Assembly (NCBI GenBank): GCA_003280965.1
Contig: QCDI01000002.1
Location: 1-64,000 of the forward strand
Length of the DNA stretch: 64,000 nucleotides
Reading direction: 5' to 3'
From: Prochlorococcus sp. AG-355-B18
GTDB lineage: Bacteria > Cyanobacteriota > Cyanobacteriia > PCC-6307 > Cyanobiaceae
The notes under the pieces are model-generated. The model was not told where the DNA came from. It saw nothing but the letters and a program-made list of their open reading frames with translations, and did not search any database. Both the position numbers and the translations under genes were made by a program. Below, piece by piece: positions 1 to 20,098 of the stretch; the stretch's first letter is position 1, and every line of letters starts with the position of its first letter.

Positions 1-42
1 CATAATGAACTTACTTATAGAGGCAAAGCTTATACAAGTTAG
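1..42 (+). CDS. 3' end of a small DUF4278-like protein (partial)
   Basis: Frame 1 reads HNELTYRGKAYTS*; the LTYRGxxY motif is typical of DUF4278 proteins; followed by a terminator. Confidence 0.6.
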   Translation, partial: HNELTYRGKAYTS

Positions 43-64
43 TTTTTTAACTACTTAAATATAC

Positions 65-88
65 AAAGCCACTTTTAGTGGCTTTTTT
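65..88 (+). terminator. Rho-independent terminator
   Basis: AAAGCCACT-TTT-AGTGGCTTT stem running into a T tract. Confidence 0.85.
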
Positions 89-177
89 AATGCCCAATCT
101 TAGCCTTAAAAAAAACTTAATACTTCTCAAAAGCATTAAAATAATATGATTCAATTGCATTTATAGATTTGATAACC

Positions 178-327
178 ATGGCAGACCAGAAACCTTTATT
201 TAAAGCACCTTATGACATAAAAGATGTCAGTGCTCTTTTCGCTATAGTTGCCTTCGTATTAATAATCGCTGCCATAGTTGGTAATAACTTATTTGGTTTA
301 TTTCAAGAAAATGTGAATTTCGGATAG
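178..327 (+). CDS. Small membrane protein, 49 aa (not in ORF track)
   Basis: MADQKPLFKAPYDIKDVSALFAIVAFVLIIAAIVGNNLFGLFQENVNFG*, one hydrophobic helix. Confidence 0.65.
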   Translation: MADQKPLFKAPYDIKDVSALFAIVAFVLIIAAIVGNNLFGLFQENVNFG

Positions 328-353
328 TGTTATTAGTAAGCGATTAATATTTA

Positions 354-611
354 TTAAACAAGCTCAATTGCATAAATAATATCCTTACAATTATTTTTTT
401 TGTCCCACTCTTTAGCTGCATCTGAAGTCATTTCAGCTTCAAGTGCTTCCATATCTAAGACGTTCATTAGTAAATGAGATTTATGCTCGCCAGCTTGTAC
501 GAACTCATATTCTGAAACTACTTCTTGACCCATTGCTGTTATAAATCCAGAAACGTCGGTTTTGAATTTTTCAAATGTGCAGCTAAAAGTTGAAATGATG
601 AGTGTGTTCAT
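354..611 (-). CDS. Small hypothetical protein (possibly DUF3764-like), paralog of 1112..1372
   Basis: 85-aa ORF sharing MNTLIxSTFxCxFE, HKSHL and KEWDKxNxxKDIxY with 1112..1372. Confidence 0.75.
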   Translation of the reverse strand: MNTLIISTFSCTFEKFKTDVSGFITAMGQEVVSEYEFVQAGEHKSHLLMNVLDMEALEAEMTSDAAKEWDKKNNCKDIIYAIELV

Positions 612-620
612 AAAAAAAGG

Positions 621-655
621 AGCTATTTGCTCCTTATTTTATATTGAATTTCAAT
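621..655 (-). repeat. Cassette-associated 35-bp repeat, copy A
   Basis: agctatttgctccttattttatattgaatttcaat, 29/35 identical to copies C/D; lies between the stop of 662..934 and the ATG of 354..611. Confidence 0.85.
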
Positions 656-661
656 TGCTAA

Positions 662-934
662 CTATGAGTAGACTTTGGCGACTATTGAACCAGCTTCTTC
701 ATCAGTAAATACGGGTGTGGTCTCCCAATTAAGGAATTCACCCCATTCAGCTGCATGCTGATATATCGCTTTTGGATCATCTGTCTTTAATACTATCCAC
801 CCTTCTAGAGATCCTGGCGCATGATATCTTCCAATCATCTCAACTCCAGGATAATCTCCTCCTCCTCCAAGAAATTTCTCCGCACCTTTTTGATGATATC
901 CAGTCTTAAATGACCAATGCTGAACGTAAAGCAT
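662..934 (-). CDS. DUF3303-family protein
   Basis: 90 aa; HWSF...GVEMIGRYHAPG...DDPKAIYQHAAEW...TPVFTDEEA matches the DUF3303 pattern. Confidence 0.8.
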   Translation of the reverse strand: MLYVQHWSFKTGYHQKGAEKFLGGGGDYPGVEMIGRYHAPGSLEGWIVLKTDDPKAIYQHAAEWGEFLNWETTPVFTDEEAGSIVAKVYS

Positions 935-1068
935 TTTGTATTTTGTATAGGCTTTCTATTAGTAGCAAGAAAAAAAATTTTTGAAAATAAATATTGTTAA
1001 TTGCCATTTTTTTATTTTCTTTTTCCAATTGTTTAAAACATAACTTAAATATTGAAGTGGGAAAATAT

Positions 1069-1103
1069 ATTGACAGTCGATATAAAATAAGGGGCAATTA
1101 GCT
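1069..1103 (+). repeat. Cassette-associated 35-bp repeat, copy B (inverted relative to A/C/D)
   Basis: attgacagtcgatataaaataaggggcaattagct, 34/35 to the reverse complement of copies C/D; 8 nt before the start of 1112..1372. Confidence 0.95.
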
Positions 1104-1111
1104 CATTTTTT

Positions 1112-1372
1112 TTGAACACATTAATAGTTTCAACTTTTGATTGTTCTTTTGAAGATTTCGATAAATTTGTAGCCGATTTCCATGAGAAAGAGGGACACAT
1201 ATTTGTCGAAGAATATGAACTCATCAAGGTAAATGATCATAAAAGTCACTTAATACTAAAAGTTAAAGATTTAGAAGGATTTGCTGCTGCTACTAGTACT
1301 CCAGAGATGAAAGAGTGGGATAAGGAAAATGGTTATAAAGACATTTGTTATTCACTAACTCCAGTTGAATAA
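1112..1372 (+). CDS. Small hypothetical protein, paralog of 354..611 (TTG start)
   Basis: 86-aa ORF with clear similarity to 354..611. Confidence 0.75.
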   Translation: MNTLIVSTFDCSFEDFDKFVADFHEKEGHIFVEEYELIKVNDHKSHLILKVKDLEGFAAATSTPEMKEWDKENGYKDICYSLTPVE

Positions 1373-1453
1373 ATGAAACGCTTACTACTCTCACTACTAG
1401 TTGCACTTACTATTCCTATTTCAGTTAAAGGCAATGAATGGATTGAAACTTAA
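1373..1453 (+). pseudogene. Signal-peptide stub MKRLLLSLLVALTIPISVKGNEWIET*
   Basis: ATG directly after the stop of 1112..1372; signal-peptide-like sequence without a mature domain; 22 bp identical to 2702-2723 (reverse complement). Confidence 0.55.
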
Positions 1454-1675
1454 TTTACATTCTTTTCTAGGTTTGCTTATATATGTTTCCATCAAAAATT
1501 TAGATAAAGTACCTATTTTTTCCTATTTATTTAAAGGTTATTCTTTTGAGCAAATAACAGAATTAATCCAATGATGAAACTTGCGATCATTTTCTTACCA
1601 GTTCTCTTTGCAATGTAGTGGCGTAGATATTTGCAGAGACTTTAAGAAAGTTTGCTAGTGGGTGAGATTTGCTAA

Positions 1676-2068
1676 TCATATCAATGGAGTTCCTGTAGAA
1701 GGATCTAATCCTCTGGTCATTCTGTATTCTCTTTTAGCTCTTTCTTCTAAGTTTCTTTGCTTTAATACTTCAGTTTTTTCAAGCATTGATTGAACCATTT
1801 GATCGTATTGATCTTGCTCTTTTGCCTTACGTTCCCAATAGCCAGTTGAGATTTTTAAGTAAGCTGCAAGCTCTCTATGATTACGTTCAATAATTGATTT
1901 TAAAGTTAATCCAAATTTAGTTGGATCTACTGAAGTGCCATATTTTCTTTCAGGTAATAGGCCAGCAGTACCTTCAAAAGACTTAATTAGCGTTTCAATT
2001 TCTCTAGCCTCATGTTCAACCTTTTGCTGGTCGTCAAAGGACTTAAATAAGCGTTCTTCTAAACTCAT
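1676..2068 (-). CDS. Hypothetical protein, charged and coiled-coil-like
   Basis: 130-aa ORF with protein-like composition; no family recognised. Confidence 0.7.
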   Translation of the reverse strand: MSLEERLFKSFDDQQKVEHEAREIETLIKSFEGTAGLLPERKYGTSVDPTKFGLTLKSIIERNHRELAAYLKISTGYWERKAKEQDQYDQMVQSMLEKTEVLKQRNLEERAKREYRMTRGLDPSTGTPLI

Positions 2069-2080
2069 AGATGTAATAAG

Positions 2081-2102
2081 AAAAGGGACTCAGGACAGTC
2101 CC
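2081..2102 (-). terminator. Terminator-like hairpin just upstream of 1676..2068
   Basis: Minus strand GGGACT-GTCCTG-AGTCCC-TTTT, ending 12 nt before the ATG. Confidence 0.55.
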
Positions 2103-2261
2103 AAAGAGGCGGATCAAAGGCTACTACTAAGACTCCACTCCTATTGTAATCACTGGGTTCTAGCCATGTTTTAAGTTAACTTTTATGTACTAATATCTAC
2201 AGGTAAACTAATTAAAATATGAAGCGATATAACTATTTGGTGCAGCTTTACCCCTCTTTTT

Positions 2262-2627
2262 TTATCTATTTCTTTCAACTATTCTAAAATTCATATCTAT
2301 AGCTCCTTTTCTTAAAGGAATAATATTTTGATAATCACCTTCATAGCAATCTTGTGCTGCCTTTTTGCTTGGGAATTGTGCGAGGACACTAAATGGTCCG
2401 TCATATCCTTCTCTTACATCTGTTTCATAATCAACTGTTAATGTCTTAGCACCGCAACCTTTAACAACGACATCATTTACTTTTGCAAAGTATTTACCTG
2501 CTTGTTCTGGATTTGTAATCTTGCCTGAAATCATTACATAACCTACATTTTTGTCTTTTGGAACTTTATAGCCAATTGCAAGCCCAGCTATGCCAGCAAT
2601 TAAACCAATTAAAATAGTTTTTTTCAT
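2262..2627 (-). CDS. DUF1330-domain protein with an N-terminal signal/anchor
   Basis: GYVMISGKITNPE...REG...VLAQFPSKKAAQDCYEGDYQNIIPLRKGA matches DUF1330; hydrophobic N-terminus. Confidence 0.8.
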   Translation of the reverse strand: MKKTILIGLIAGIAGLAIGYKVPKDKNVGYVMISGKITNPEQAGKYFAKVNDVVVKGCGAKTLTVDYETDVREGYDGPFSVLAQFPSKKAAQDCYEGDYQNIIPLRKGAIDMNFRIVERNR

Positions 2628-2662
2628 TTGAAATTTGATTTTCGTAAATAATATACGATTCT

Positions 2663-2690
2663 TTCTAAATTGGCTCTCAATTATTAACTA
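2663..2690 (-). repeat. Degenerate half copy (E) of the cassette repeat
   Basis: ttctaaattggctctcaattattaacta is 22/28 identical to 3537-3564; upstream of 2262..2627. Confidence 0.55.
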
Positions 2691-2718
2691 TTAGCGATGC
2701 AAGTAGTAAGCGTTTCAT
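2677..2718 (-). pseudogene. Signal-peptide stub MKRLLLASLIVNN*
   Basis: Starts 4 nt after the stop of 2723..3043 and terminates inside repeat copy E. Confidence 0.5.
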
Positions 2719-2722
2719 TTAT

Positions 2723-3043
2723 TTATATATTTTCTAATCTTTTTTGGCCTTCTTTTCTAGCCTTTTCGATTCCTTTTTTTGCAAGTATTGGCGTAGTCAC
2801 TAATCCAATTAATGTTCCAGAGCTTTCTAACTTTTTCTCATCATAATTTGGATTTATTATTGCAACAATAGCTCCATAGGTAAATCCAATCGCGATATTA
2901 CCCAAAAAAGCGAACAATAATGGTGTAATAGTTCTGCGGGTAATGGCATAATATATCCCTACAAAAGGTACTATATGAGCTATTGCATAACCCCATGCAA
3001 CATCTTTTTGCCTATTTTGAAATCCTTCTAATTTAGTTGTCAT
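2723..3043 (-). CDS. Small membrane protein, hypothetical
   Basis: 106 aa with 2-3 hydrophobic segments. Confidence 0.75.
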   Translation of the reverse strand: MTTKLEGFQNRQKDVAWGYAIAHIVPFVGIYYAITRRTITPLLFAFLGNIAIGFTYGAIVAIINPNYDEKKLESSGTLIGLVTTPILAKKGIEKARKEGQKRLENI

Positions 3044-3077
3044 AAGTATTTAATTGATTGCCAGAGTTTAACTAATT

Positions 3078-3112
3078 AGCTAATTGCCCCTTATTTTAGA
3101 TCGACTGTCAAT
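3078..3112 (-). repeat. Cassette-associated 35-bp repeat, copy C
   Basis: agctaattgccccttattttagatcgactgtcaat, identical to 3521-3555. Confidence 0.97.
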
Positions 3113-3185
3113 ATTATTCTTTAGGCCATTGATGAGGAACTAAACCACTTAGAGCAGATTTATTTCTTAGTTTATCTTTAAAAAA

Positions 3186-3506
3186 TCAATTAAATTTGAT
3201 TTTACAATTTTCAAATTCTTCAACAATATCATTAAACCCTTGAGCTAAAGCGTCTAAATCATAAGCATCTGCGGTTTCTGGATCCTCCATACTTTCTTCG
3301 AAATTAGAGGTAAAGATCTTTGCCTCAATGTTAGTTATCATCTCCGCATCTACTTGATCACAAAGCGTCCCACTTATTCCTGCTCCAAAACCATAGGAAA
3401 ACCAGAAGGTAGAGTCCAATTTTTCTGCTTTAGAGTCAAGAGGAGCAAAAAATATTATAGGAACTACTAGTAATCTACAAAATTTATCTAAAAATTTAAT
3501 GTTCAT
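3186..3506 (-). CDS. Secreted hypothetical protein
   Basis: 106 aa; signal peptide ending SKA-E; acidic mature part with two Cys. Confidence 0.75.
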   Translation of the reverse strand: MNIKFLDKFCRLLVVPIIFFAPLDSKAEKLDSTFWFSYGFGAGISGTLCDQVDAEMITNIEAKIFTSNFEESMEDPETADAYDLDALAQGFNDIVEEFENCKIKFN

Positions 3507-3520
3507 GGATTAAAACAAGG

Positions 3521-3555
3521 AGCTAATTGCCCCTTATTTTAGATCGACTGTCAAT
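3521..3555 (-). repeat. Cassette-associated 35-bp repeat, copy D
   Basis: Identical to 3078-3112; begins 6 nt after the recombinase stop codon. Confidence 0.97.
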
Positions 3556-3561
3556 TACTAA

Positions 3562-4752
3562 CTATTGTTGTTGCTTTTGTTGTTGGTCTAATAAATTTAA
3601 TGTCTGTAAAACATCTTGTTTGTCATATCCCTTTTGGTAAGTAGCTGTATGAACAGCCTCAGAGTGACCCATAAATTTTGAAGCTGATGCTGTATTGATA
3701 TTCATGTTTGCAGTTCGATAACCATAAGCGTGTCTTAGGTCATAAGCTTGAAAAGCTTGATTAGTTTTTTTAGCCAGCCATTTGGTATATCTTCTGTTAA
3801 ATGATTTTAAAAATGCAGAATCATAATCCTCAGTTTTATCAATACTAAATTCCTTATGTACATTCAAAATGTCTAATGACTTTGCCCACTCTTGTTTTAA
3901 TGCTGGTGTAATTCTCCACTCTGATGGCTCTTCACTCTTGGGTACTGTTAATACTTCAGCCATAATCTTTCCAGACTCTTCAAATGGTTTAATGCTCCAT
4001 ACTTCTGAGGTTCTTGTACCAAAAACTAATTGAGCAGCTAAAGCCCAACCCCATGTTGGATCTTCTCTCAATAATCGTGCATGGTATAGATATTCCTCGT
4101 CTTTTAGTCTTTTTCTGGATCTCTTCTTGGCGTCATCTTTATAGGCTTTTTGGGTAGCTGTGGACCATTCCTGTAATTTTTTCAAATTAGGAATTTCTGC
4201 AAACTTAGCCAGCCTTAAAAAATGTTTTGCAGTATCCGCTTTTTTCTTTGATCCAGTTGGAGCTTTATTAGCAAGTTCAACAATATTTTCATAATTTAGA
4301 ATTTTATGTTTTTCCATCTGTAAGAGATAATTTTCAATCTGTTTCCACCCAGCCATGTTTTGATTATTATTTCTGTCCTTATCTTCAGCACTCCAAAAGT
4401 CCTCTTCAAATCTTTTGATAATATCTCCAACTTTTCTACTTTGTTTATCTACTTCAATCTTTTCTTCTTCAGTTACTTGCCAATTCTTCCAATCAAATAA
4501 TCCAGACTTTTTCTCCAGACCTAATTTCTTAGCTAACCTTACAGCTTCCTTATGATTACCAATTTCTGCTTTTAAATTTATTGGAACCCATTGTTGGAGA
4601 TTCTGTTTAGATTTTGGATCTTTTGAAGGTAAAACAGCCCTAAGAGTAAAACCATCTCTCCTTATATATATAGTTACTCCTACTCTTTCCTTTTTAAGTA
4701 GGTCATTAGTAGCATCTAACTTTGCTTGTAATACAACTGTTGAATTAGCCAT
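3562..4752 (-). CDS. Tyrosine recombinase / site-specific integrase
   Basis: 396 aa; catalytic motifs GTRTSE (R), YDLRHAYG, FMGHS, HTATY (Y); extended N-terminal region; adjacent to a tRNA. Confidence 0.93.
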   Translation of the reverse strand: MANSTVVLQAKLDATNDLLKKERVGVTIYIRRDGFTLRAVLPSKDPKSKQNLQQWVPINLKAEIGNHKEAVRLAKKLGLEKKSGLFDWKNWQVTEEEKIEVDKQSRKVGDIIKRFEEDFWSAEDKDRNNNQNMAGWKQIENYLLQMEKHKILNYENIVELANKAPTGSKKKADTAKHFLRLAKFAEIPNLKKLQEWSTATQKAYKDDAKKRSRKRLKDEEYLYHARLLREDPTWGWALAAQLVFGTRTSEVWSIKPFEESGKIMAEVLTVPKSEEPSEWRITPALKQEWAKSLDILNVHKEFSIDKTEDYDSAFLKSFNRRYTKWLAKKTNQAFQAYDLRHAYGYRTANMNINTASASKFMGHSEAVHTATYQKGYDKQDVLQTLNLLDQQQKQQQ

Positions 4753-4769
4753 TTTTGTTCGGAAAATTA

Positions 4770-4793
4770 GCGTGGACTACCCTGCGTGGACTA
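4770..4793. repeat. Tandem 10-bp direct repeat GCGTGGACTA (putative integrase arm-type sites)
   Basis: GCGTGGACTA at 4770-4779 and 4784-4793, between the integrase ATG and the tRNA. Confidence 0.7.
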
Positions 4794-4961
4794 ATTCTAA
4801 CCAATATGTACAAATAGGTGCAAGTTAACCTATATTCTGTCAATCAAAAAATAGTTTCATTTCATAACCCCTAAGAACCCTAGTTATAACGTGAATTGCT
4901 TGACTATGACTGACTTCTTATGATATATATTAATGGTTCGGATACAACTGAATAACCCGTT

Positions 4962-5048
4962 GGAGGGGTGGTCGAGTGGTTTAAGGCTCTAGTCTTGAAA
5001 ACTAGCGTGTCTGCAAGGGCACCGTGGGTTCGAATCCCACCCCCTCCG
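4962..5048 (+). tRNA. tRNA-Ser (TGA)
   Basis: GGAGGGG...CCCCTCC-G acceptor stem, CTAGT-CT-TGA-AA-ACTAG anticodon arm, long variable arm, GGTTCGAATCC T-loop; no encoded CCA. Confidence 0.97.
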
Positions 5049-5132
5049 TTCTCAATAAAATAAATTTAAATTCAACCGAATAATACAAACGCCCTTTTGG
5101 GACCTCTTTGTTAAAATGTTTTTATTTGGATT

Positions 5133-5333
5133 ATGAATAAAGGATTCGCTAAAGATAATTTAATATCCAAAAAATCGAAAAAAAAAGTTATTTCTAATGA
5201 ACCTCAAGGAAGATTAATATCTTGGTCTCCTTGGCCACCAGCTAATTTTCAGACAAGATATCCTGCTTTCCCTTTTGTTCTTACAATTTTAATTATAGTA
5301 ATTGGTCAATGGTATCTTTCTCTACTTAGGTAA
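5133..5333 (+). CDS. Small hypothetical membrane protein
   Basis: 66 aa, C-terminal TM helix. Confidence 0.6.
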   Translation: MNKGFAKDNLISKKSKKKVISNEPQGRLISWSPWPPANFQTRYPAFPFVLTILIIVIGQWYLSLLR

Positions 5334-5386
5334 CCTAAAACTGGTTTTGTATTTAAATTTTGTTGAATTGAGTTAAGGTATTTATT

Positions 5387-5971
5387 TTGTTTTTTTCAAT
5401 CTTATTATTAGCTCATTTTCAAGCTGCATTAATACCAATATTATTAGGAATTAGATCTATCAATAAATTCAAACATATAAGCAAGAACAAATTGATACCT
5501 CTAGGTTTTATTTTTTTAGGATTAGCATCAATTTCTGAAATGATAGATCATACTAAAACATCATGGATTTACGTAGATCATTCCTCTTTGTTTAATTGGT
5601 TGTTTTATTCTTTCCTATCTTTAGGCCTGACATGTATATCGATATCAGTAATAAAAAATAGAGTTATTAAATCAACTAACTTTTGCATTTCCTTATGTTC
5701 AATAATCTCATATTTTTTATTTGATAAAAATATTTCTCTTCTTTTCCAAGTAATAATAAGCATCTTTTTAATAATAAATTGGCAAAAAGTTTTTAAAGAT
5801 TGGCTTTTTATCCTTTACCCAATATTTGGCATTTTTTTTACGACTTTCTTTGGAACAAAGCTCTCAATTAGTGGCGATCAATTTTGGCATGTTTTAATAG
5901 GCCCATCTGGAACTATTAGCGTACTTACCTTTTATCTAGTGTTAAAGAGATCAGAAGCAAAATTTAATTAA
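5387..5971 (+). CDS. Hypothetical integral membrane protein
   Basis: 194 aa, several TM segments with EMIDH and WH polar motifs. Confidence 0.75.
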   Translation: MFFSILLLAHFQAALIPILLGIRSINKFKHISKNKLIPLGFIFLGLASISEMIDHTKTSWIYVDHSSLFNWLFYSFLSLGLTCISISVIKNRVIKSTNFCISLCSIISYFLFDKNISLLFQVIISIFLIINWQKVFKDWLFILYPIFGIFFTTFFGTKLSISGDQFWHVLIGPSGTISVLTFYLVLKRSEAKFN

Positions 5972-5978
5972 GATTTTT

Positions 5979-6308
5979 ATGAAAATATTTTTATTTACAA
6001 GTTTTATAGTGTGCTTAGTCACAATAATCTCTCCAATTGAAATTTTTGCTGATACTGCACTTGAGGTTTATATGAATGATTTTTATTCTAAATCGAATGA
6101 AGCTAGCCAGATTCTTAAAGAAATCGAAAATAGTCTTAAAGAGGGATCAAGAAAAAAAGTATGCTCTAGGCAAAGAGAAGCCGCAAGATTGGGCATATTA
6201 GCCAATAAATCATTAATTAAAGCCTTTGAAATAGAAGGTGCTAATCCACCAATGCAAGCAATAAAAGCAAGCCAACAAAGATGGGAATCTATTCTGAATG
6301 AGTGCTGA
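5979..6308 (+). CDS. Secreted hypothetical protein
   Basis: 109 aa, signal peptide, two Cys in the mature part. Confidence 0.7.
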   Translation: MKIFLFTSFIVCLVTIISPIEIFADTALEVYMNDFYSKSNEASQILKEIENSLKEGSRKKVCSRQREAARLGILANKSLIKAFEIEGANPPMQAIKASQQRWESILNEC

Positions 6309-6334
6309 AGAAAGTCAGTAAATCTATAAATCTC

Positions 6335-6769
6335 TTAAATTTGCATTCTTACAGATTTACTAATTAAGGGGATTTCAGGTTCAACTCCATAAATACATTG
6401 AGAAATCGAATAAATAAAAATACAAAGTGTAAATATAAAAATAATTGAGCCTAATTCAACTATGGGAAATATTCTCAAGAGATATGAAATTATTATCAAG
6501 GAAATATTTATAAGTAATGCTTGGCATGCGTTATATCTAACGAAATAGGGGACTTTTGGATTTCTTGCTAATCCAGCAAACAAAATTATAAATAGTAAAA
6601 AACCACCAAAAGGCAAAGACTTTTCAAGTATTGCTATTGGGAAAGTTAATAATAATAGTATTTTTAAAAAAGAATATTTATAGAACAAATAATATCCAAA
6701 AGGTATTGATGCCTTTAAAGGCAAAGTATACAAAAATACTGATGAGAGTCTCTGGAATATCTGGTTCAA
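6335..6769 (-). CDS. Tic20/Ycf60 family protein
   Basis: RNPKVPYFVRYNACQALL and EIPLISKSVRMQI motifs. Confidence 0.85.
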   Translation of the reverse strand: MNQIFQRLSSVFLYTLPLKASIPFGYYLFYKYSFLKILLLLTFPIAILEKSLPFGGFLLFIILFAGLARNPKVPYFVRYNACQALLINISLIIISYLLRIFPIVELGSIIFIFTLCIFIYSISQCIYGVEPEIPLISKSVRMQI

Positions 6770-6902
6770 TATATTGTTAAAATTTTGTACTCATATTTTA
6801 ACCTAATTTTCTGAACTTAATAAAAGACTTAGCCTCTATAAGTATCAACTTTGGCAGATTTTTATTAAATATTAGATAATTGATTAAGGTTCAAAATTCA
6901 AA

Positions 6903-7292
6903 ATGCGTATCCTACATACAATGTTGAGAGTTGGAGACTTAGATAAATCCATTGATTTCTACGTCAACAGATTAGGGATGAATTTATTAAGAAAAAAAGA
7001 CTACCCTCATGGAAAATTCACTTTAGCATTTGTTGGTTATGGCTCAGAAAAGGAAAACGCAGTAATTGAATTAACTTATAACTGGGACAAAAAGTCTGAA
7101 GACTATGAGCTTGGAGATAAATATGGTCATATAGCTATTGGAGTAAAAGATATTCATTTAATTTGCCAGGGATTAGAAAATAACGGTTGTAAAATAATAA
7201 CCAAACCTAAAACAATGAAAAACAGCACTACTGTCTTGGCTTTTGTTGAGGACCCTGATGGATATAAAATTGAACTTATTGAAAGAGATTAA
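6903..7292 (+). CDS. gloA: Lactoylglutathione lyase (glyoxalase I)
   Basis: [40 protein letters not shown]. Confidence 0.97.
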
Positions 7293-7561
7293 AAGCTCGT
7301 AATTTTTAATTTAATAAACAAATAACCAAAATTAAAAAAGGTTGATTTATCTAATAAATATTTTGCAATTAACGGGAAAAATACCCACAAAATCATATTG
7401 GATAGAATCTAAAGTTTTAATTGCTAGATAATATTATTCCTAAGATGAGGAATCTTTAAAAAACTGATCCTTAAAGTTTTATATATTCTATATAAAATCT
7501 ATTTAGAGTATATAGACAATCTATATAGATTAATTTAATATGGAATTATAGTATAAAACTT

Positions 7562-8059
7562 ATGCCTAGTAATTGGTCAAAAATAAGAGATGAATGGCTT
7601 GATAGAACCTCCATTGCTAAAGATGATGCTAAATGGGCATTGGAAGCTTTAATTAATTCTGAAGAAGAGTTATTTGAAATAGAACAAAAAATTAGAAATA
7701 AAGAGGACGCGATAAGTAAAGTAAAATTTTTGAAGAAAAAAGTAAAAGAAACTATCTCCTCCAAAGAAATTAGTCTCGATGATATTACATTAAACACTTC
7801 GAATTCGAATAAGGTACAAATCTCAGTACCATCAAACCTTACTTATCTACTGAAGGTTTGGGCAGCAGCAGAGGGCCGAGATCTATCGAGTGTTGCATTT
7901 CAGTGTTTAGAAACTGGAATAAGGGAAATGCAAAGCAAAGGTTCAATACCCTCTGTAGCAATAAATAGATATGACTCTGCCTGTCAAAAGAGAATTGCAT
8001 TGGCAGAAGTAAACAATTTATTAGAGAAATACGAAATAGCTCAGAATGAACTCAAATAA
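7562..8059 (+). CDS. Hypothetical protein with a coiled coil and a putative ribbon-helix-helix domain
   Basis: KVQISVPSNLTYLLKVWAAAEGRDLSSVAFQCLE resembles Arc/CopG RHH. Confidence 0.7.
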   Translation: MPSNWSKIRDEWLDRTSIAKDDAKWALEALINSEEELFEIEQKIRNKEDAISKVKFLKKKVKETISSKEISLDDITLNTSNSNKVQISVPSNLTYLLKVWAAAEGRDLSSVAFQCLETGIREMQSKGSIPSVAINRYDSACQKRIALAEVNNLLEKYEIAQNELK

Positions 8060-8061
8060 TT

Positions 8062-8454
8062 ATGAATAACAGAAAAATCATTAAAGGATACAAAACATTA
8101 ACATCATCAAGATTTGATGTAGATACTTCTGTAGATAAATTCAAAGATGGAATAATTTATACTCTTTATTCTGATGAATTTAATTCACTTAAAGTTGGTT
8201 TTGTTGAAAATGATAAGGTTCTAGAAAAAAAATTATCAAGTAGTGTATTGATATTATTGGATATGAAAAAAGGAAAAAAGAAAGATCTTTGTTTATTAAT
8301 AACTACTCTAAAAGAACTTGGCATCAAATATTCAGACAATTTTCATTTCAAATACTCAAGTTCTTTAATGAAACTTTTATCTACTTTAGGTTGGCCTGTT
8401 GGAAGATCACTTTATAAACAAAGAAAGATTAAAAAAGAACTTATATGTGCATAA
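8062..8454 (+). CDS. Hypothetical protein
   Basis: 130-aa ORF starting 2 nt after the upstream gene. Confidence 0.65.
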   Translation: MNNRKIIKGYKTLTSSRFDVDTSVDKFKDGIIYTLYSDEFNSLKVGFVENDKVLEKKLSSSVLILLDMKKGKKKDLCLLITTLKELGIKYSDNFHFKYSSSLMKLLSTLGWPVGRSLYKQRKIKKELICA

Positions 8455-8456
8455 AT

Positions 8457-8930
8457 TTAAAGGTAATCGCACTCTAAAGTTTCTCTGGTTTCTCTATTTG
8501 TAATTGGATTAGTTCCAGTGGCACTTTCACAAAATTTCCTAATAATATCTTTTGGCAAAAAAACATTTGTGAAGTCTGCGCCTTGTATTTTTACATTATC
8601 AAACTGGGTACTATAAGCAAAAGAATCCTCTAAGTTAGTATTTGATAAATCTGTTCCATCTAAAACAGCCGAGTCTAAAGTTACTTCCCTTAAGTTGGAG
8701 TTACTTAAATTAGTATCTTTCAATTTTGCTCCATAAAGAGTCGCATTTTGGAGCTCGCAACCTGACAAATTTGCATCTTGTAAATCAGTCAAATAGAAAG
8801 TTGCTCCTTTTAAATCAGATCCTGAGAAATCAGCTCCTACCAAAGATTGTTTACCATAATCCAACGCAGCGAAGCTTCTAGAAGGGAGGGTTAAAACAAC
8901 TATTAAAAAAGTTAAAAATATAAATCTCAT
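8457..8930 (-). CDS. Pentapeptide repeat protein (signal peptide)
   Basis: A(D/N)LxxA-type repeats; C-terminal CESATGTNPITNRETRETLEC. Confidence 0.93.
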   Translation of the reverse strand: MRFIFLTFLIVVLTLPSRSFAALDYGKQSLVGADFSGSDLKGATFYLTDLQDANLSGCELQNATLYGAKLKDTNLSNSNLREVTLDSAVLDGTDLSNTNLEDSFAYSTQFDNVKIQGADFTNVFLPKDIIRKFCESATGTNPITNRETRETLECDYL

Positions 8931-9037
8931 TTGTTTGAGTAGTATTTCAATAAATTCTAACTTCTTAAGCTTAAATCTAAAAATTAATTATTTACTGAAT
9001 GCTATATTTATTGGAATAACAAATCACGAACTAGGTT

Positions 9038-10678
9038 TTGGATATAAGTCCTTATGATGCAATTGTTGTTGGTTCTGGAGCTACAGGAGGAATAGCAGCA
9101 CTTACATTGGCAGAACAAGGGGTCAAAGTTTTAGTAATAGAAGCAGGGCCTCAAATCAAAAGACATGAAGCTAGTAATCATGAGCCAAAAAGTACATTAA
9201 AAAGATTATCAGGAGTGTTAACAAAAAAACATGCCAATCAATGCCAACATCCTGGTTATTGGAAAAATAATCCTGACTTATATTCAAATGAATTGAAGCA
9301 TCCTTATGACTTTCCAAAAAAAAAGCCATTTCTTTGGACCCAAGGTAAACAATATGGGGGGAGATCATTAACGTGGGGAGGTATAACATTAAGGCTTTCC
9401 TCAGAAGATTTTCATCCGGCTAAAAAAGATGGATTCGGTCCAAACTGGCCTATTTCATACAATGAACTATCCCCTCACTATGATTTCATTGAAAATTTCT
9501 GCGGCATCTATGGACGAAAAGATGACATTAAAGAGGTGCCAAACGGTAAATATATTGGGGAAATTCCTCTTACAGAAAACGAAAATGTTTTTGGCAGCAA
9601 AGTTAAATCAAAATTAAACTATCCATTTATCCAATCAAGAGGATTTGACCGAAATTCATCAGTAAAAGAAAAAAAATGGCCCAAGTCCTCTAGCGTAGGA
9701 AGCTCTTTAAAAAAAGCTTTAGATACTGGAAATGTACAAATAATCTCTAATTACTTAGTGGAGTCTTTTGAGATTAACAAGATAACAGAACTTGCCTCAA
9801 AACTAACGATTGTAAACCTTGAGAATGGACACAAAGAAGTATTGGATTGTGATTTAATTCTTCTTTGCGCATCAACAATTTCAACACTGAGAATACTACT
9901 TAATTCAGAATATAAATCGAATTCCTCAGGTTTTAAAGATAATTCTGGGAAATTAGGTAAATACCTTATGGACCATATATCTATCTGTAGATTTTTTTCA
10001 GTCCCAAAAACAAAAAACTCAAAAAAACCATTAGAAAATCCTCCCGATCTTTCTGGAGCAGGCAGCTTCTTTATTCCATTCGGTTCAAATTTACCAAAAA
10101 TTGACGACATTAATTTCCATAGAGGGTATGGAATCTGGGGGGCAATTGATCGATTAGGGATTCCTAAATTTTTGCAAAAAGACACAAATACATCCATTGG
10201 CTTTCTTATCGCCCATGGCGAGGTCCTACCAAGAGAGAAAAACACAGTTTCTCTCTCAACAAAAACAGATGAATGGGGTATCCCAATTCCTTACATTGAA
10301 TTCGAATGGAGCGAGAATGAGTTAAATATGGCAAAACATATGACAAATACAATCCGAAAATCAATAAAAGCTGCAAATGGAGAAATAAAAAATATTGATG
10401 AACTTATAAACATCCCACTAGGGAGTTTTTTTACAAAAAATTTGATCGCACTCTCAGATAATCCCCCTCCCCCAGGATATTACATTCATGAAGTAGGAGG
10501 GGCACCTATGGGAACTGATGAAGAAAATAGCGTGGTTGATAAATTTAATAGAATATGGAGATGCAAAAATGTACTTGTGCTCGATGGGGCTTGTTGGCCA
10601 ACTTCATCTTGGCAAAGCCCCACCCTTACAATGATGGCCTTGTGTAGGAGAGCGTGCCTAAATATTAAAAAGATTTAG
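9038..10678 (+). CDS. GMC family oxidoreductase
   Basis: YDAIVVGSGATGG FAD motif, GKYLMDH, IHEVGGAPMG, PTLTMMAL. Confidence 0.93.
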   Translation: MDISPYDAIVVGSGATGGIAALTLAEQGVKVLVIEAGPQIKRHEASNHEPKSTLKRLSGVLTKKHANQCQHPGYWKNNPDLYSNELKHPYDFPKKKPFLWTQGKQYGGRSLTWGGITLRLSSEDFHPAKKDGFGPNWPISYNELSPHYDFIENFCGIYGRKDDIKEVPNGKYIGEIPLTENENVFGSKVKSKLNYPFIQSRGFDRNSSVKEKKWPKSSSVGSSLKKALDTGNVQIISNYLVESFEINKITELASKLTIVNLENGHKEVLDCDLILLCASTISTLRILLNSEYKSNSSGFKDNSGKLGKYLMDHISICRFFSVPKTKNSKKPLENPPDLSGAGSFFIPFGSNLPKIDDINFHRGYGIWGAIDRLGIPKFLQKDTNTSIGFLIAHGEVLPREKNTVSLSTKTDEWGIPIPYIEFEWSENELNMAKHMTNTIRKSIKAANGEIKNIDELINIPLGSFFTKNLIALSDNPPPPGYYIHEVGGAPMGTDEENSVVDKFNRIWRCKNVLVLDGACWPTSSWQSPTLTMMALCRRACLNIKKI

Positions 10679-10922
10679 AAGGAGTAAATAGTTGATTTAA
10701 ATAAATTTCTGAAACAGAATTATCAGTACATCCGTTTTGAACCAGAAAAGTAGCTAATGCTGAATTTATAAGCTTATATTGATCCCAAGTTGGGTTACTT
10801 AATACAAAATCTTTCATAGTGTTATAGAGAGTTTCTGAAAGCTCTGTCTCTAAGGAGACTTTATTTAAAGAGCACTCGGCAAAATTCTTATCAGTTAAAT
10901 TTGATTCGCTAATTTGATCCAT
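10665..10922 (-). CDS. DUF2811 family protein
   Basis: VSLETELSETLYNTMKDFV..NPTWDQYKLINSALATFLVQNG. Confidence 0.8.
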   Translation of the reverse strand: MDQISESNLTDKNFAECSLNKVSLETELSETLYNTMKDFVLSNPTWDQYKLINSALATFLVQNGCTDNSVSEIYLNQLFTPSKSF

Positions 10923-11273
10923 TAATTCCTATTTTTTACATGAATATAATGATGTTTTTTTCTAAAAAAATCAAAAAAATTATGCTTGTAAACTTTTCAA
11001 GTTATCAAATGAGACTCATGTTATAACTTGTTTTTTTTAAAACTAACTTTTTAAATAGGGAAATTGATTAGATCTTAAAGAAAAGTCAACAATAATGTTG
11101 AAGTCCTGTTTTTTTTTAAAACTGCTGGCATTTCTAATCCAATGTGGATTTGGACGTGGAAAACAACCTCTAAATTGTGGAAAATCTAGTTCTAAAGATT
11201 TTCAAGATTTTATATTAAGAATACTTATATATACTGAGTCTATTGAGACTTAGCCGAGAAAGAGACAGGTGAT

Positions 11274-12428
11274 TCAGCTATTTTCAATGGATTTTCTTAA
11301 GGTTTGATCTTCATTTAGCAAGCGAAGCGTGACAGGTCCCAAAGGATGCTTTGAATTTGGATAAGTACTATGGTGATGGTGATGGTGATGGTGTTCAGGA
11401 TGATGAGCCTCGACATGTTCAAGTTCTAGGTAATCACCTTCTCCTCGGTTTGATTTTTCTTGGTTATGAGTTGGGATTCGATTTTGTATTTCACAAGCAC
11501 CATTACATTCAGGATCACATAATTCACAGCTGATACCCAAGCCCTCTACATGGTCATGATGACTTTCTTGTACCATTCCAACTTCTTTTTCGAATCCAAA
11601 TAAATTTGATCTATATTTGCAAGTTGAACAATTCATAAAATTCTTACCTTCGTCATTCAGAATCTCTTCAATCCTTTCTACAAAAGTGTCGACCACATAA
11701 GACTGTGATGAAAGATATTTTGCATGTATAAATGAAATCTCTGGATTATTAATAGCAACTAAATCACTTTGCCTTTTTATTCTTGTGACAAGGACGCCTG
11801 AAAAAAGGAAATAAGGGAAAATAATTATATTTTTATAACCAAGTCTTACAACATTTTTCAAGCCAGCTTCAACGAGAGGGAAAGTTACTCCAGAAAAAAC
11901 TGTTTCCCCCCACCCTATACCAATACCCTCTACTATCATTCTCGTAATTTTTGAAACGTTGGAATTTGCATCAGGGTCAGAGGAGCCTCTTCCAACAACA
12001 ACTAATAATGATTCTTCAGGTTTAAGAGAATTATTTTGTCTAAATACATCTTTAACTCTTTCACAAGCAGCACTGATCATTAAATTATTAATACCTAATT
12101 CTCTTCCATAAATTATTTCAATACCTGTTTTACTTGAATAATTCATAAGCAAGCTAGGTATATCATTTTTTACATGGCCAGCAGCAAATAGCATTGCGGG
12201 AATTGCAATTATTTTTTTTATAGAATTATCTTTCAACTTGTCTAAAGCATCGACAATTGTAGGTTTTGCAAATTCCAAGAAACCATATTCAACTAATATG
12301 TTTGGATATCTTTTTTGAATCAGTTTAGTTAATTCTTCAAATTCGGTAATGGCTAGTTTATTTCTACTCCCATGTCCACAGATAAGAATCGCGACTTGAT
12401 TATTTATCTTCGAATCTAAATTATCCAA
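11274..12428 (-). CDS. cbiX: Sirohydrochlorin cobaltochelatase CbiX (probable TTG start at 12428; ORF extends to 12506)
   Basis: CGHGSR, AAGHVKNDIP, GRGSSD, MNCSTCKYR and a His-rich C-terminus. Confidence 0.92.
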   Translation of the reverse strand: MDNLDSKINNQVAILICGHGSRNKLAITEFEELTKLIQKRYPNILVEYGFLEFAKPTIVDALDKLKDNSIKKIIAIPAMLFAAGHVKNDIPSLLMNYSSKTGIEIIYGRELGINNLMISAACERVKDVFRQNNSLKPEESLLVVVGRGSSDPDANSNVSKITRMIVEGIGIGWGETVFSGVTFPLVEAGLKNVVRLGYKNIIIFPYFLFSGVLVTRIKRQSDLVAINNPEISFIHAKYLSSQSYVVDTFVERIEEILNDEGKNFMNCSTCKYRSNLFGFEKEVGMVQESHHDHVEGLGISCELCDPECNGACEIQNRIPTHNQEKSNRGEGDYLELEHVEAHHPEHHHHHHHHSTYPNSKHPLGPVTLRLLNEDQTLRKSIENS

Positions 12429-12475
12429 AACCAAGTTATTACTTATACCATAATAGTAAAGAACAATATCATGTA

Positions 12476-13753
12476 GTGAAATATAATAATTTGCTTGTAG
12501 TTCCAAATATCAACTCAAGGGATGCAAAATTAAAGAAATTAATTTATGAAGTTAATGACTCTATATTCAAAAAATTTAACTATTCCAATGAAAAATTCGA
12601 GCACCTTTGCGTATGTAGTGGAGGTACAACCTCTAGCTGTGCAAAAAATGGTTTTACAACACTGGATCTAAGAAAAAATCATAGCAAAATTCATCTAGAT
12701 AAAAAAACCAATTTAGTAACAATTGGAGGTGGAGTAATAATGGGGGATCTAGTAAATCATTTACAAAAAAATAATCGAAGTTTTCCAATCGGACTTTCTA
12801 AACTTCCTGGAGCAGGCTATATACTTACTGGTGGAGTAAGCCCGCTCAGTAGAGCCTACGGATTAGCAATAGATAATATTGAATCAATAAAAGGTTTCTT
12901 GGGTAATGGCACATTTATCTCTTTAAAAAAAAATCAAATAAATCCAGAAGAACAATTGATTTGGGAAGCAATTAAAGGCGCAGCACCCTTCTTCTCAATT
13001 ATTACCGAAATAGAACTTAAGACTATCCAATCTAATCCAATAACGGTTATTGAAGGATTTGTAAATCTAAATGAACTTTCAGAAATAATAAAACTATCAG
13101 AGGAATTTCCAGAAAATATTAGTCTTCAATGGATTTATGCCCAAAAAATTTATATATATATTTTTGCCGAACTAAAAAATAATTTGGAGGATAAAAGAAC
13201 AGAAGAATACTTAATGCTTCTAGACAAATTTCCTGCTCTAGAAAAACAATTTTATGAGAACTTTAACAAAATAAATTTTTTTCCAAAGGAATTGAATTTA
13301 TATGAGCTGAATGCAAATAACCATTCTGAGGTAATTAGTCTTCTTGGAGAAGATTTAAAAAAAGATATCCCAAGTTTCATAAAATGTTTGAATGAAATAA
13401 TGGATAATAAACCTAATAATTCCTGTTATATTGCTTCTCAACAATTAGGTTGCAAAACTAAAAAGTTAAATCATGGCTCAAGCTTTTTTGTTCATAGAAA
13501 AAGCACTTGGAAACCATGGATATATGCATCATGGAAAAAAAATGATCTTCAAGAAAAAGAAGTCGCTCTGAAATGGATTTATAAATCGTGGAAGAAGCTA
13601 AAAAAGTTTTATCCAAACATTCACTTAGCCCAATTGCATAATCATTTGAGTTCTCATGAAGAAGAAATTACATTAGCCTTTGGAAATAGAATAAATGAAT
13701 TAAAAACTTTAAAGAATATTTTTGATCCACAAGGTATTTTGCCTCCTTTATGA
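12476..13753 (+). CDS. FAD-binding oxidoreductase (BBE-like)
   Basis: VTIGGGV, GGVSPLSRAYGLAIDNI, WEAIKGA, LKNIFDPQGI. Confidence 0.85.
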   Translation: MKYNNLLVVPNINSRDAKLKKLIYEVNDSIFKKFNYSNEKFEHLCVCSGGTTSSCAKNGFTTLDLRKNHSKIHLDKKTNLVTIGGGVIMGDLVNHLQKNNRSFPIGLSKLPGAGYILTGGVSPLSRAYGLAIDNIESIKGFLGNGTFISLKKNQINPEEQLIWEAIKGAAPFFSIITEIELKTIQSNPITVIEGFVNLNELSEIIKLSEEFPENISLQWIYAQKIYIYIFAELKNNLEDKRTEEYLMLLDKFPALEKQFYENFNKINFFPKELNLYELNANNHSEVISLLGEDLKKDIPSFIKCLNEIMDNKPNNSCYIASQQLGCKTKKLNHGSSFFVHRKSTWKPWIYASWKKNDLQEKEVALKWIYKSWKKLKKFYPNIHLAQLHNHLSSHEEEITLAFGNRINELKTLKNIFDPQGILPPL

Positions 13754-13783
13754 GGTAACTTCTTAATTATAAAGAAACTTAAA

Positions 13784-15349
13784 ATGTCAAATTTCTCAAG
13801 ATATTTATCTAAAAATTGGTTAGATGATCCAAAGTCAAATATTCTCTCTGGCTTAGTTGTTGCTTTTGCAATGATCCCAGAAGCAATTGCTTTTTCAGGT
13901 ATAGCTGGTGTAGATCCTAAAGTTGGCCTTTTTGGTGCATTTTGCTTATCCATAACAATTGCGATTGTTGGAGGAAGAAGGGGTATGATCACTTCTGCCA
14001 CAGGTTCAACAGCTCTTTTGATGACTGGACTTGTTGCCTTTGGAGAGTCACAAGCCCCTGGATTAGGAGTCCCATATCTTATTGCAGCTGGAATATTGAC
14101 TGGAATTTTCCAAATTCTTTGGGGATATTTAAGACTCGCCTACCAAATGCGTTTCGTGCCAACAGGAGTATTAAGTGGATTTGTAAATGCACTGGCACTT
14201 TTAATATTTCAAGCACAACTACCTCAGTTAGGAATAGGTATTAAAGAATCAAAAGAATTAGTTGAACAAACTTTAAGTCAATATCCAATTAACACTCAGA
14301 TTCCAGTAGTTTGGGTTCTTGTAATCCTAGGATTAGTAATTATCTATGGGCTTCCAAAAATCACAAAAGTAATCCCATCTCAACTTATAGCAATAGTAGT
14401 GATAACTCTTATAACCATATTCTTTAATCTAGATGTTCCAACAGTTAGCGATTTGGGTAAATTACCTGATGGATTACCAAGTATTTCTCTTCCTTTTGGA
14501 TCAATAGAAAATGGCAAAGTACCTTTTAGTCTTGAAACATTAGGGATAATTTTACCGACCTCACTGGCAATATCTCTCGTAGGTTTAATGGAAACCTTTT
14601 TAACTCAAGACATTTTAGACGATGTAACTGATACAAGTTCTAATAAAAATAAAGAAGCAAGAGGACAAGGAATCGCAAATATTGTGGCATCTTTATTTGG
14701 CGGAATGGCTGGATGTGCCTTAGTTGGGCAATCTGTAATGAATACTGAGAATGGTGGTAAATCTAGATTATCAACCCTCTCCTCAGGTATATCTCTACTA
14801 ATTATGATAATACTCTTGAAGTCTTGGATTGGAGCAATACCAATGGCTGCTTTAGTAGCAATCATGATAACGATCGCAATAAGTACAGCAGATATAAATG
14901 GATTAAAAAATATTAGAAAAATTCCTAAAAGCGATACTGCAGTCATGCTTATGACTTTTGCAGTTACTATGCTTACAAAACCTCATAATCTTGCACTTGG
15001 AGTTATTGCGGGAGTTGCATTAGCTGGAATTCTTTTTAGCAGAAAAGTCGCAAAAGTTATAACTGTCTCAAGAGCAAAAGAAAGTAATTTAACTACCTAC
15101 AAAGTAAAAGGACAATTATTTTTTGTAAGTAAAATTTATTTTTTACAAGGATTTGATATACATGAACATCCAGAAAATATTGTAATTGACATGTCTCTAG
15201 CTCATATTTGGGATCAAAGTGGCGTTGTTGCTCTTGAGCAAATTATTAGAAAATTCCAGAATGGTGGTTCTAAAGTTGAAATTATTGGATTAAATAAAGA
15301 AAGTCTTAACTTATTTGAAAGACTAGGTGGTGTAGAAAGCGCTCATTGA
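13784..15349 (+). CDS. SulP family anion transporter with STAS domain
   Basis: AMIPEAIAF, GMAGCALVGQS, C-terminal DMSLAHIWDQSG. Confidence 0.93.
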   Translation: MSNFSRYLSKNWLDDPKSNILSGLVVAFAMIPEAIAFSGIAGVDPKVGLFGAFCLSITIAIVGGRRGMITSATGSTALLMTGLVAFGESQAPGLGVPYLIAAGILTGIFQILWGYLRLAYQMRFVPTGVLSGFVNALALLIFQAQLPQLGIGIKESKELVEQTLSQYPINTQIPVVWVLVILGLVIIYGLPKITKVIPSQLIAIVVITLITIFFNLDVPTVSDLGKLPDGLPSISLPFGSIENGKVPFSLETLGIILPTSLAISLVGLMETFLTQDILDDVTDTSSNKNKEARGQGIANIVASLFGGMAGCALVGQSVMNTENGGKSRLSTLSSGISLLIMIILLKSWIGAIPMAALVAIMITIAISTADINGLKNIRKIPKSDTAVMLMTFAVTMLTKPHNLALGVIAGVALAGILFSRKVAKVITVSRAKESNLTTYKVKGQLFFVSKIYFLQGFDIHEHPENIVIDMSLAHIWDQSGVVALEQIIRKFQNGGSKVEIIGLNKESLNLFERLGGVESAH

Positions 15350-15355
15350 AAAAAG

Positions 15356-16246: not shown

Positions 16247-16259
16247 TAAATCTCCTTTC

Positions 16260-17603
<1,344 letters not shown>

Positions 17604-17659
17604 CTATTATCTATTTAACTTAAAAAAGTACTAAAAAAAAACAAAGAAAAGATAAATAT

Positions 17660-18319: not shown

Positions 18320-18413
18320 AAAAAACCTTTTAAAACCATAATAATTCTAACCCTGCAATCAAGATTAGTAAATAAATGAAAAACTTGGTTTTTATTGAAA
18401 ATTCAAAAATTAT

Positions 18414-19922: not shown

Positions 19923-20098
19923 TTTTGGAAATTCTTGATAATTTTTTTAATTTCTTACCCATATCAATATTTTTCTACATTAAAGCAATACTTGACCATA
20001 GCAAATTATTTATTGTAAATATTGAATTTTTTAATTTATAATTTTAATGAAAAATAAAAAATTAAATTTAAAGATAAATAATCATAAATAAGGAATAT

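Follow-up and report, generated by a model that had tools for sequence, protein, structure and literature searches.

In T4-type phages, small orphan genes are preceded by PeSLs, intergenic elements that combine a promoter with a terminator hairpin, and copies of these elements recombine so that one-gene units are deleted, inserted or circularised, for which the homology machinery of host or phage has been proposed (PMC2839356 and PMC4122927, in their accessible parts). In Prochlorococcus, islands hold more than two-thirds of the flexible genes, recognisable mobile elements amount to 3.6% of the island material, half being "cryptic", and island content is attributed to imprecise excision in the available portion of the study on tycheposons (bioRxiv 10.1101/2020.12.28.424599). 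Here, we describe an array of small genes that are separated by a short repeat, the joint, and lie behind a tyrosine recombinase (the integrase) at a tRNA-Ser island of Prochlorococcus sp. AG-355-B18. The analysed stretch, referred to as the window, comprises 64,000 nucleotides (GenBank assembly GCA_003280965.1, contig QCDI01000002.1, positions 1 to 64,000), and its source genome is of the high-light type (1.58 Mb, 31% G+C), from a host lineage that is the ocean's most abundant photosynthetic bacterium. The joint is almost certainly an exchange point for cassettes, a conclusion common to readings in which exchange proceeds by short homology, by a recombinase acting in trans or by a private integrase system. 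As to the mechanism, we hold with about even confidence that a lineage-wide promoter-hairpin joint supports PeSL-like short-homology exchange of one-gene cassettes and that tRNA-targeting integrases carry the resulting arrays as cargo.

One-gene cassettes between joints

The joint measures ~47 bp and consists of a 16-bp near-palindromic core (consensus GATTGAC-A-GTCGATC), a -10-like hexamer, a hairpin, a T-run and a start codon. A cassette spans one core to the next and thus comprises the hexamer, the hairpin, the start codon, the gene and a few bases past its stop. From 675 raw joints, 525 were kept after removal of those with less than 130 nt upstream or less than 210 nt downstream and of exact duplicates; most statistics refer to the 481 joints with at most two core mismatches, an earlier anatomy set comprised 234 contexts, and distinct joints are counted as pairs of upstream and downstream flank clusters (n = 388). 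As the loci were picked for carrying the repeat and the genomes are related, these counts describe a pattern and not independent trials.

Comparison among genomes shows that cassettes switch neighbours and order, and that filled and empty versions exist. The 481 joints combine 242 upstream with 211 downstream flank clusters, and at least two partners were found for 69 of the 81 upstream and 63 of the 71 downstream clusters with several members. Of the 130 different core-to-core units, 30 recurred, and 24 of the recurrent ones had different surroundings; a unit of 301-305 bp was sighted eight times in eight settings and one of 321-322 bp six times in six. Filled and empty states could be arranged in seven triplets. 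The two cassettes next to the integrase in the window, A and B, recur in another genome (G176, locus L334) at the same tRNA-Ser island, where they stand in the order B-A instead of the A-B of the window and have different neighbours, with 97-99% identity (439/443 positions for A, 417/431 for B). The integrase of the L334 element is 25% identical to that of the window, and both attachment sites are still present around its array. The 75-nt tail of cassette A corresponds to the 3' terminus of a small CxxC gene usual behind these integrases, its translation matching the gene end in locus L058, and cassette A therefore formed inside such an element and later moved whole. The earlier note on this DNA, written from the window alone, had proposed a capture or shuffling system of repeat-bounded one-gene units, and the comparative evidence bears out that such units change place and order and that the breaks fall within the repeat.

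A second repeat family, S, corresponds to the start of a signal-peptide gene (MKRLLL) and follows stop codons at 2702-2718, 1373-1389 and, in decayed form, 325-348. It is non-palindromic, has 23 copies in the genome, swaps partners as well (34/42 and 30/40 clusters with several) and forms stubs directly before the core in 70 of 280 cases. In the window, on another contig of its genome (G000 C18, 1177-3671) and in L334 (4632-5408), S stands at the start of successive secreted-protein genes, each of which overlaps the preceding stop. It may represent a second type of cassette, in which mature domains are shuffled behind a common signal peptide. Contigs from four marine sets show an accumulation of loose ends of mixed sequence at positions 3113 and 3557, at the core edge. 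Among the joints listed from these sets, which hold contigs only, none was diagnostic of a circle of cassette A, and those that appear to go back are no evidence of circles, since other copies of both repeats can yield them.

Position of the break and anatomy of the joint

Breakpoints map within the joint. Sequence 5' of the core remains linked to the upstream unit, the loop and 3' arm of the hairpin travel with the downstream gene, and 16-20 shared bases suffice. Bases -6 to -1 track the upstream unit (z 6.5-9.9), bases from position 16 on track the downstream unit, and the hairpin type follows the downstream gene (0.78 vs. 0.49 expected). In joints of the main hairpin type, positions 16-26 track neither side, and the loop and 3' arm track the gene (z 3.7). 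Among near-identical downstream units, the partner had changed in 73% of main-type pairs vs. 43% and 36% of pairs of the rarer types. A single fixed crossover bond is unsupported, as rare core variants travel with either side, and the exchange zone of main-type joints covers about positions 0-26 rather than the 16-bp core alone. Together, the movement of core variants in both directions, the unlinked positions 16-26, the more frequent swapping of the main type, the swapping of S and one head-to-head fusion through the hairpin argue for homology rather than one cut site.

The last two bases of the core open the hexamer, TAnnnT, which is fixed in position in 363 of the 388 distinct joints. In 220 of 376 joints, a gene starts 36-60 nt away from the core, and the stop codon of the upstream gene is often at most a dozen bases away from it. 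Two hairpin types, unlike in sequence and equal in folding, account for 255 and 67 of the 388 joints, and 66 have neither. A promoter scan found no canonical sigma-70 -35/-10 pair at joints, and a canonical promoter of this kind was rejected because of a spacing of 7 nt; genome-wide, short spacing is mildly raised (90 vs. 32-76 at other spacings). From its sequence, we infer promoter and terminator roles for the joint. At one locus (L134, 1467-1525), two joints stand head to head and are fused through the hairpin loop, which yields a perfect-looking palindrome of 58 bp.

The array in the window

A genome search with the 35-bp repeat of the earlier note verified the coordinates and identity of its exact copies at 3521-3555 and 3078-3112, the inverted copy at 1069-1103 (34/35, opposite strand) and the copy at 621-655 (29/35). 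With up to three mismatches, the 35-mer has ten matches in the genome, seven of them outside the window. The 16-bp core is found with 10 exact, 10 one-mismatch and 5 two-mismatch matches, far in excess of 20 shuffled cores (means of 0, 0 and 0.95), and the repeat is thus not due to chance. For the half copy, E, the match (12/16 to the core at 2666-2681) is near chance level when taken alone; it stands as a decayed joint since a relative (L358) has a closer match to the core before this gene. The remaining description of the locus holds as well: each copy precedes a small open reading frame (ORF) in the orientation of that ORF, the core of copy D starts 6 nt past the integrase stop, the units from D to C and from C to E measure 443 and 431 bp, and ARAGORN places a tRNA-Ser(TGA) at the island. 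The features are as follows, with the basis of the assignment in brackets.

4961-5049, plus strand: tRNA-Ser(TGA), the 5' 40-44 nt of which are the integrase attachment site (ARAGORN)
3562-4752, minus strand: tyrosine recombinase of the tycheposon type, 396 aa (alignment; predicted fold)
3509-3555, minus strand: joint D, with core at 3540-3555, -10-like hexamer, hairpin and T-run (repeat search, folding)
3113-3555, minus strand: cassette A, 443 bp, with joint, 106-aa ORF at 3186-3506 and the 75-nt tail (identity to L334)
3078-3112, minus strand: joint C, with exact core at 3097-3112, 3' arm of the hairpin lost (repeat search, folding)
2682-3112, minus strand: cassette B, 431 bp, with joint, 106-aa ORF at 2723-3043 and S stub (identity to L334)
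2702-2718, minus strand: S stub of the MKRLLL signal-peptide gene start, likewise a point of exchange (sequence comparison)
2666-2681, minus strand: joint E, decayed core with 4/16 mismatches, before the DUF1330 gene (core comparison)
2262-2627, minus strand: DUF1330 gene, 121 aa (PF07045, E 4e-15)
1604-2234, minus strand: what is left of the original element, including a 130-aa ORF (1676-2068) without a joint in front (85% identical to L068)
1373-1389, plus strand: S repeat past the inverted gene (sequence comparison)
1112-1372, plus strand: 86-aa ORF, inverted cassette gene, paralogue of 354-611
1069-1113, plus strand: inverted joint, core at 1069-1084 with one mismatch
662-934, minus strand: DUF3303 gene, 90 aa, with the next joint past its stop (PF11746, E 1e-24)
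611-655, minus strand: distal joint, core decayed (4/16 mismatches), hairpin perfect
354-611, minus strand: 85-aa ORF, of a family found in high-light genomes and one low-light genus
169-327, plus strand: conserved small gene of family F8, island-closing in related genomes

The hairpin of copy D folds with -16.5 kcal/mol (z -4.6), whereas that of copy C is lost. Like the gene at 1676-2068, the one at 662-934 has no repeat in front. The paralogues at 354-611 and 1112-1372 are 45% identical. The protein of cassette A has no match in Pfam, NCBIfam or the named Atlas families. Locus L068 is a joint-free element at the same site as in the window, and the family of the 130-aa ORF at 1676-2068 recurs behind related integrases. 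No partial tRNA copy was found in window positions 1-20000, and replication or packaging hallmark genes are absent from positions 1-4800, which hold no Pfam match of that kind and, except for the integrase, no ORF of more than 130 aa. The window is best explained as the stranded remnant of a tRNA-targeting element, its far attachment site having been lost and its cargo slot filled with cassettes.

Elsewhere in the genome, joints lie beside tRNA-Pro, tRNA-Met and tRNA-Thr and on small contigs; they cluster at several islands, some of which have no adjoining intact integrase. A second integrase of the same clade, at the tRNA-Pro island (G000 C1, 99270-100888), ends 2-3 nt before a joint that is followed by two cassettes. 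Directly after tRNA-Thr (G000 C11, 60839-67250), a joint array is accompanied by an integrase fragment only (63440-63712).

Distribution across the genus

A 23-nt pattern of the joint matches 86 of the 93 near-complete genus genomes, and its reversed control none. Its 19-nt form was found in 58 of 62 genomes of the genus vs. 1 of 248 others in the family, and 12 core bases, in clusters, in 10/10 genomes of the genus and 8/9 of one low-light genus, vs. single matches in 11 of 111 others. The low-light joint keeps the core and has a third, G-rich hairpin type and a T-run, and its partners change as well. A further low-light variant with a longer spacer and a different hairpin occurs at four loci (L413, L414, L418, L424). 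One joint of the high-light type that follows a DUF3303 gene in another genus (L374, G443:C1 near 314185) is likely a transfer. Viral collections are nearly without the repeat, with one stretch in viral contigs and nothing but matches at E = 1 among 50,697 phage records. Around 12 DUF3764 genes of other picocyanobacterial genera (7/10 genomes searched), no related joint was found, which is a narrow test.

The integrase and its tRNA target

By alignment, the integrase retains the catalytic residues R247, K272, R340, H363 and Y372, although its PF00589 match (E 1e-4) is below the cut-off. Its predicted structure (predicted local distance difference test score of 86.6) has an N-terminal arm-binding domain and matches the folds of lambda Int and Tn1549 Int best; a sequence search of the PDB with the integrase gave no match. 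It is 23-27% identical to a chromosomal ("core") recombinase that is encoded beside hemH in every genome searched. Relatives with E <= 1e-40 were found in 26 of the 285 genus genomes and in 9 of the 92 near-complete ones. In 24 of the 25 related loci listed, tRNA-Ser(TGA) adjoins the integrase, which faces inward, and a second copy of the 5' 40-44 nt of the tRNA lies at the far end in 5 of 24 related loci (L033, L058, L069, L070, L071) and in L334. It is a tycheposon-type enzyme with the 5' part of tRNA-Ser as its own target.

Several further features were noted around these enzymes. The left ten core bases recur on the minus strand at 4837-4846, ~95 nt before the start of the integrase gene, and relatives with 61-100% identity retain them; they may be a half-site for a core-binding protein or just a -35-like hexamer. 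A 10-bp direct repeat lies directly before the integrase start (4770-4793), and other integrase lineages have different direct repeats there, as expected of arm-type sites. The integrase ends in a poly-glutamine tail (CAA repeats of variable length, 3562-3600) common to relatives with 61-100% identity. Short tyrosine recombinases of 191-211 aa, with the catalytic domain only, are encoded in a few genomes of the genus (L435, L442, L445, L447), with no joint within 1.5 kb.

Across many lineages, the genes of tycheposon-type integrases run directly into a joint, and in L334 such an element keeps both tRNA attachment sites around its array. The proposed tie between this integrase clade and the repeat at the integrase 3' end is strongly supported by comparative counts, and orthologous integrase loci carry different first genes, with six first units behind seven copies of the junction found in the window.

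How the cassettes may be exchanged

Under short-homology exchange, the joint would start transcription of the next gene, and its hairpin and U-run would stop read-through, so that a cassette would work at any landing place. Host recombination at joints, by annealing or RecA and perhaps by replication slippage stalled at the hairpin, would generate deletions, small circles and re-insertions at other joints. The integrase would act at the tRNA and ferry whole arrays between cells, and we propose that it is kept intact because it moves arrays there, rather than because it cuts the joint.

Several observations weigh against this explanation. The hairpin type does not track the upstream unit (0.48 vs. 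0.49 expected), and longer homology is therefore unnecessary; units with the core as their sole shared part still have 5-6 partners. No more than 22 nt are common to a joint and its best alternative in 72 of 215 cases, and 22 nt of shared sequence is short for RecA. The conservation of the core (92-100% per position), together with the retention of 12 core bases without the hexamer in the low-light genus, suggests a protein that reads the core. In high-light island material, 11 of 17 integrase families (clusters at 70% identity) end at the core vs. 3 of 219 other large-ORF families, a contrast that is overstated because many of the 219 are core genes flanking islands. Truncated integrase interiors occur in none of the 242 upstream flanks. 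Under short-homology exchange, the enrichment of joints behind integrases would have to be attributed to cargo selection.

A close rival, which we consider somewhat less than evenly probable, holds that exchange is site-specific, the 16-bp core being recombined in trans by a tyrosine recombinase of the tycheposon/core clade. Candidates are the chromosomal recombinase beside hemH and the element-borne integrases, for which this would be a second activity, with the junction of integrase and joint serving as a loading platform. Besides the exchange with just the core in common and the integrase families ending at the joint, this rival draws on a near-palindromic core that is conserved across two genera and on the upstream flanks, where integrase C-termini make up 15 of the 242 clusters and the core supplies the stop codon in some. 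Behind 16 such integrases, 37 of 38 cores are co-oriented with the integrase, and the first core is the best conserved. The chromosomal recombinase is the sole PF00589 match, in a profile that is weak for this clade, in 16 of 46 near-complete genomes, several of which have 6-11 cores. No IntI or Y1 transposase scored over the cut-off in five genomes, and no resolvase was found in the low-light genome tested. Against a recombinase acting in trans stand the lack of a single crossover bond and the form of the core, a palindrome with a 1-bp centre being unlike the arm-spacer-arm sites of the tyrosine recombinase family. The integrases are also only 25-40% identical and have different tRNA targets, which makes a common 16-bp site unlikely, and none of the three low-light integrases seen ends at a joint. 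No joint adjoins the chromosomal recombinase (0/32), the relatives of which occur in cyanobacteria without the joint core. In its full form, this rival describes a non-IntI integron-like system of the high-light lineage and one low-light lineage, in which a recombinase of the tycheposon/core clade acts at a 16-bp palindromic site to cut out, insert and rearrange promoter-bearing one-gene cassettes in all islands, and tRNA-targeting integrases that end at such a site act as loading platforms and carry the arrays from cell to cell; we regard this as possible, though less likely than not.

A private system, in which the integrase and the repeats of the window form a local unit at the tRNA-Ser island and cassettes are added beside the enzyme, is very improbable. 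It would fit the six first units behind seven junction copies and the finding that, among loci selected solely by their integrase, a core follows the stop within 13 nt in 10 of 25, vs. 39 of 816 ORFs in repeat-rich regions. It is, however, largely refuted by distribution, the repeat occurring in 86/93 genomes and the integrase in 9/92. An integrase with 98% identity (L058) has no joint, cassettes A and B also stand behind the 25% identical enzyme of L334, joints occur elsewhere without an intact integrase, and the enzyme's own target is the tRNA. The role of engine, which the earlier note implied for the integrase at the tRNA-Ser island, is not supported. The idea that the newest cassette lies beside the recombinase is weakly backed by core mismatches, which average 0.12 at rank 1, 0.54 at rank 2 and 0.62 beyond in 16 non-independent arrays. 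Copies are indeed spread genome-wide, which had been named as a sign against the system if unlinked to the integrase clade, but they are linked to it.

That the repeat is a shared regulatory element only, the operator and promoter of an island regulon in which gene order shifts for unrelated reasons, is more improbable still: the operator-like palindrome directly before a -10-like hexamer would fit and a regulator may bind the core, but breaks coincide with the joint to a few bases and unit lengths stay constant across unrelated settings, a movement that refutes regulation as the full explanation, and the joint is neither the CGRE1 motif, which differs in length and sequence (PMC6191309), nor a member of an Rfam family, the tRNA being the one Rfam match.

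Two other engines were considered and rejected. An HUH/IS200 mechanism is at odds with the absence of Y1 transposases over the cut-off in the five genomes and with the movement of units that lack a hairpin. A serine resolvase is present in three high-light genomes and was not found in the low-light genome G461, which has the repeat, and is therefore no common engine.

Comparison with known systems

The island repeat PRE1, which Coleman et al. are said to have described in Science in 2006, is reportedly ~48 nt long, multicopy, nearly confined to the islands of high-light strains and tied to island rearrangement. The joint, which agrees with that repeat in length (~47 nt) and spread, is probably PRE1. 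To our knowledge, no account of PRE1 covers cassette units, a crossover zone, hairpin types or a link to integrases. A literature search, with most subscription papers outside its reach, found no description of cassette units, exchange zone or integrase link, and neither PRE1 nor such a cassette system was found in the accessible text of PMC3037559, PMC7522525 and bioRxiv 2025.12.29.696893.

The array resembles integrons and CALINs, as far as these are covered in the available part of PMC4889954, in its one-gene units, in their reordering and in the occurrence of arrays with and without a neighbouring recombinase. Excision, insertion and reordering of one-gene cassettes, an integron-type trait, is present in the comparative evidence. 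In contrast to integrons, the joint array has no IntI or attC boxes, its cassettes carry a promoter-like joint at their 5' end, and the joint is conserved in sequence, whereas the integron site is conserved only in structure (same source). Membership in the integrons was rejected, in agreement with the earlier note: the IntI profile TIGR02249 has no match in the genome of the window and none over the cut-off in four others, NCBIfam gave no integron match, none of the 388 joints has the attC R-box pattern, and solved IntI ranks 40th in the fold search with the integrase, after lambda Int, Tn1549 Int, Xer and Cre. If a recombinase were the engine after all, this would be a second, independently evolved integron-like system.

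With the tycheposons and cryptic elements, as described in the available text of bioRxiv 10.1101/2020.12.28.424599, the locus shares the inward-facing tyrosine recombinase beside tRNA-Ser(TGA), the partial tRNA at the far end in relatives, the patchy occurrence and the kinship with the core recombinase. It differs in having neither the far attachment site nor replication genes in the window. The main text of that study, as available, does not contain the word "integron", and its two mentions of "repeat" concern other things. Joints behind many integrases offer a possible identity for some of the cryptic elements, and a joint at which single genes are gained, lost and reordered would explain in concrete terms how the rest of the island content turns over on a fine scale. 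The 443-bp unit and the 302-bp unit with its eight settings are exact substrates for such exchange.

The array also resembles the PeSLs of T4-like phages, in which, according to the accessible parts of PMC2839356 and PMC4122927, a promoter and hairpin stand before small variable genes and exchange between copies swaps the genes. Exchange between joints swaps genes as well, and the joint has a hairpin with U-run and the TAnnnT hexamer, a putative counterpart of the PeSL promoter and terminator. Unlike PeSLs, the joints lie in chromosomal islands of a free-living bacterium and not in T4-like phage genomes, have no canonical -35/17/-10 spacing, need no more than the palindromic core for exchange and are tied to the 3' ends of integrases. 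Mini-circles have been demonstrated for PeSLs, whereas the joint cassettes are known from comparative sequence alone. If no recombinase drives the exchange, the PeSL principle extends from phages to a bacterial chromosome.

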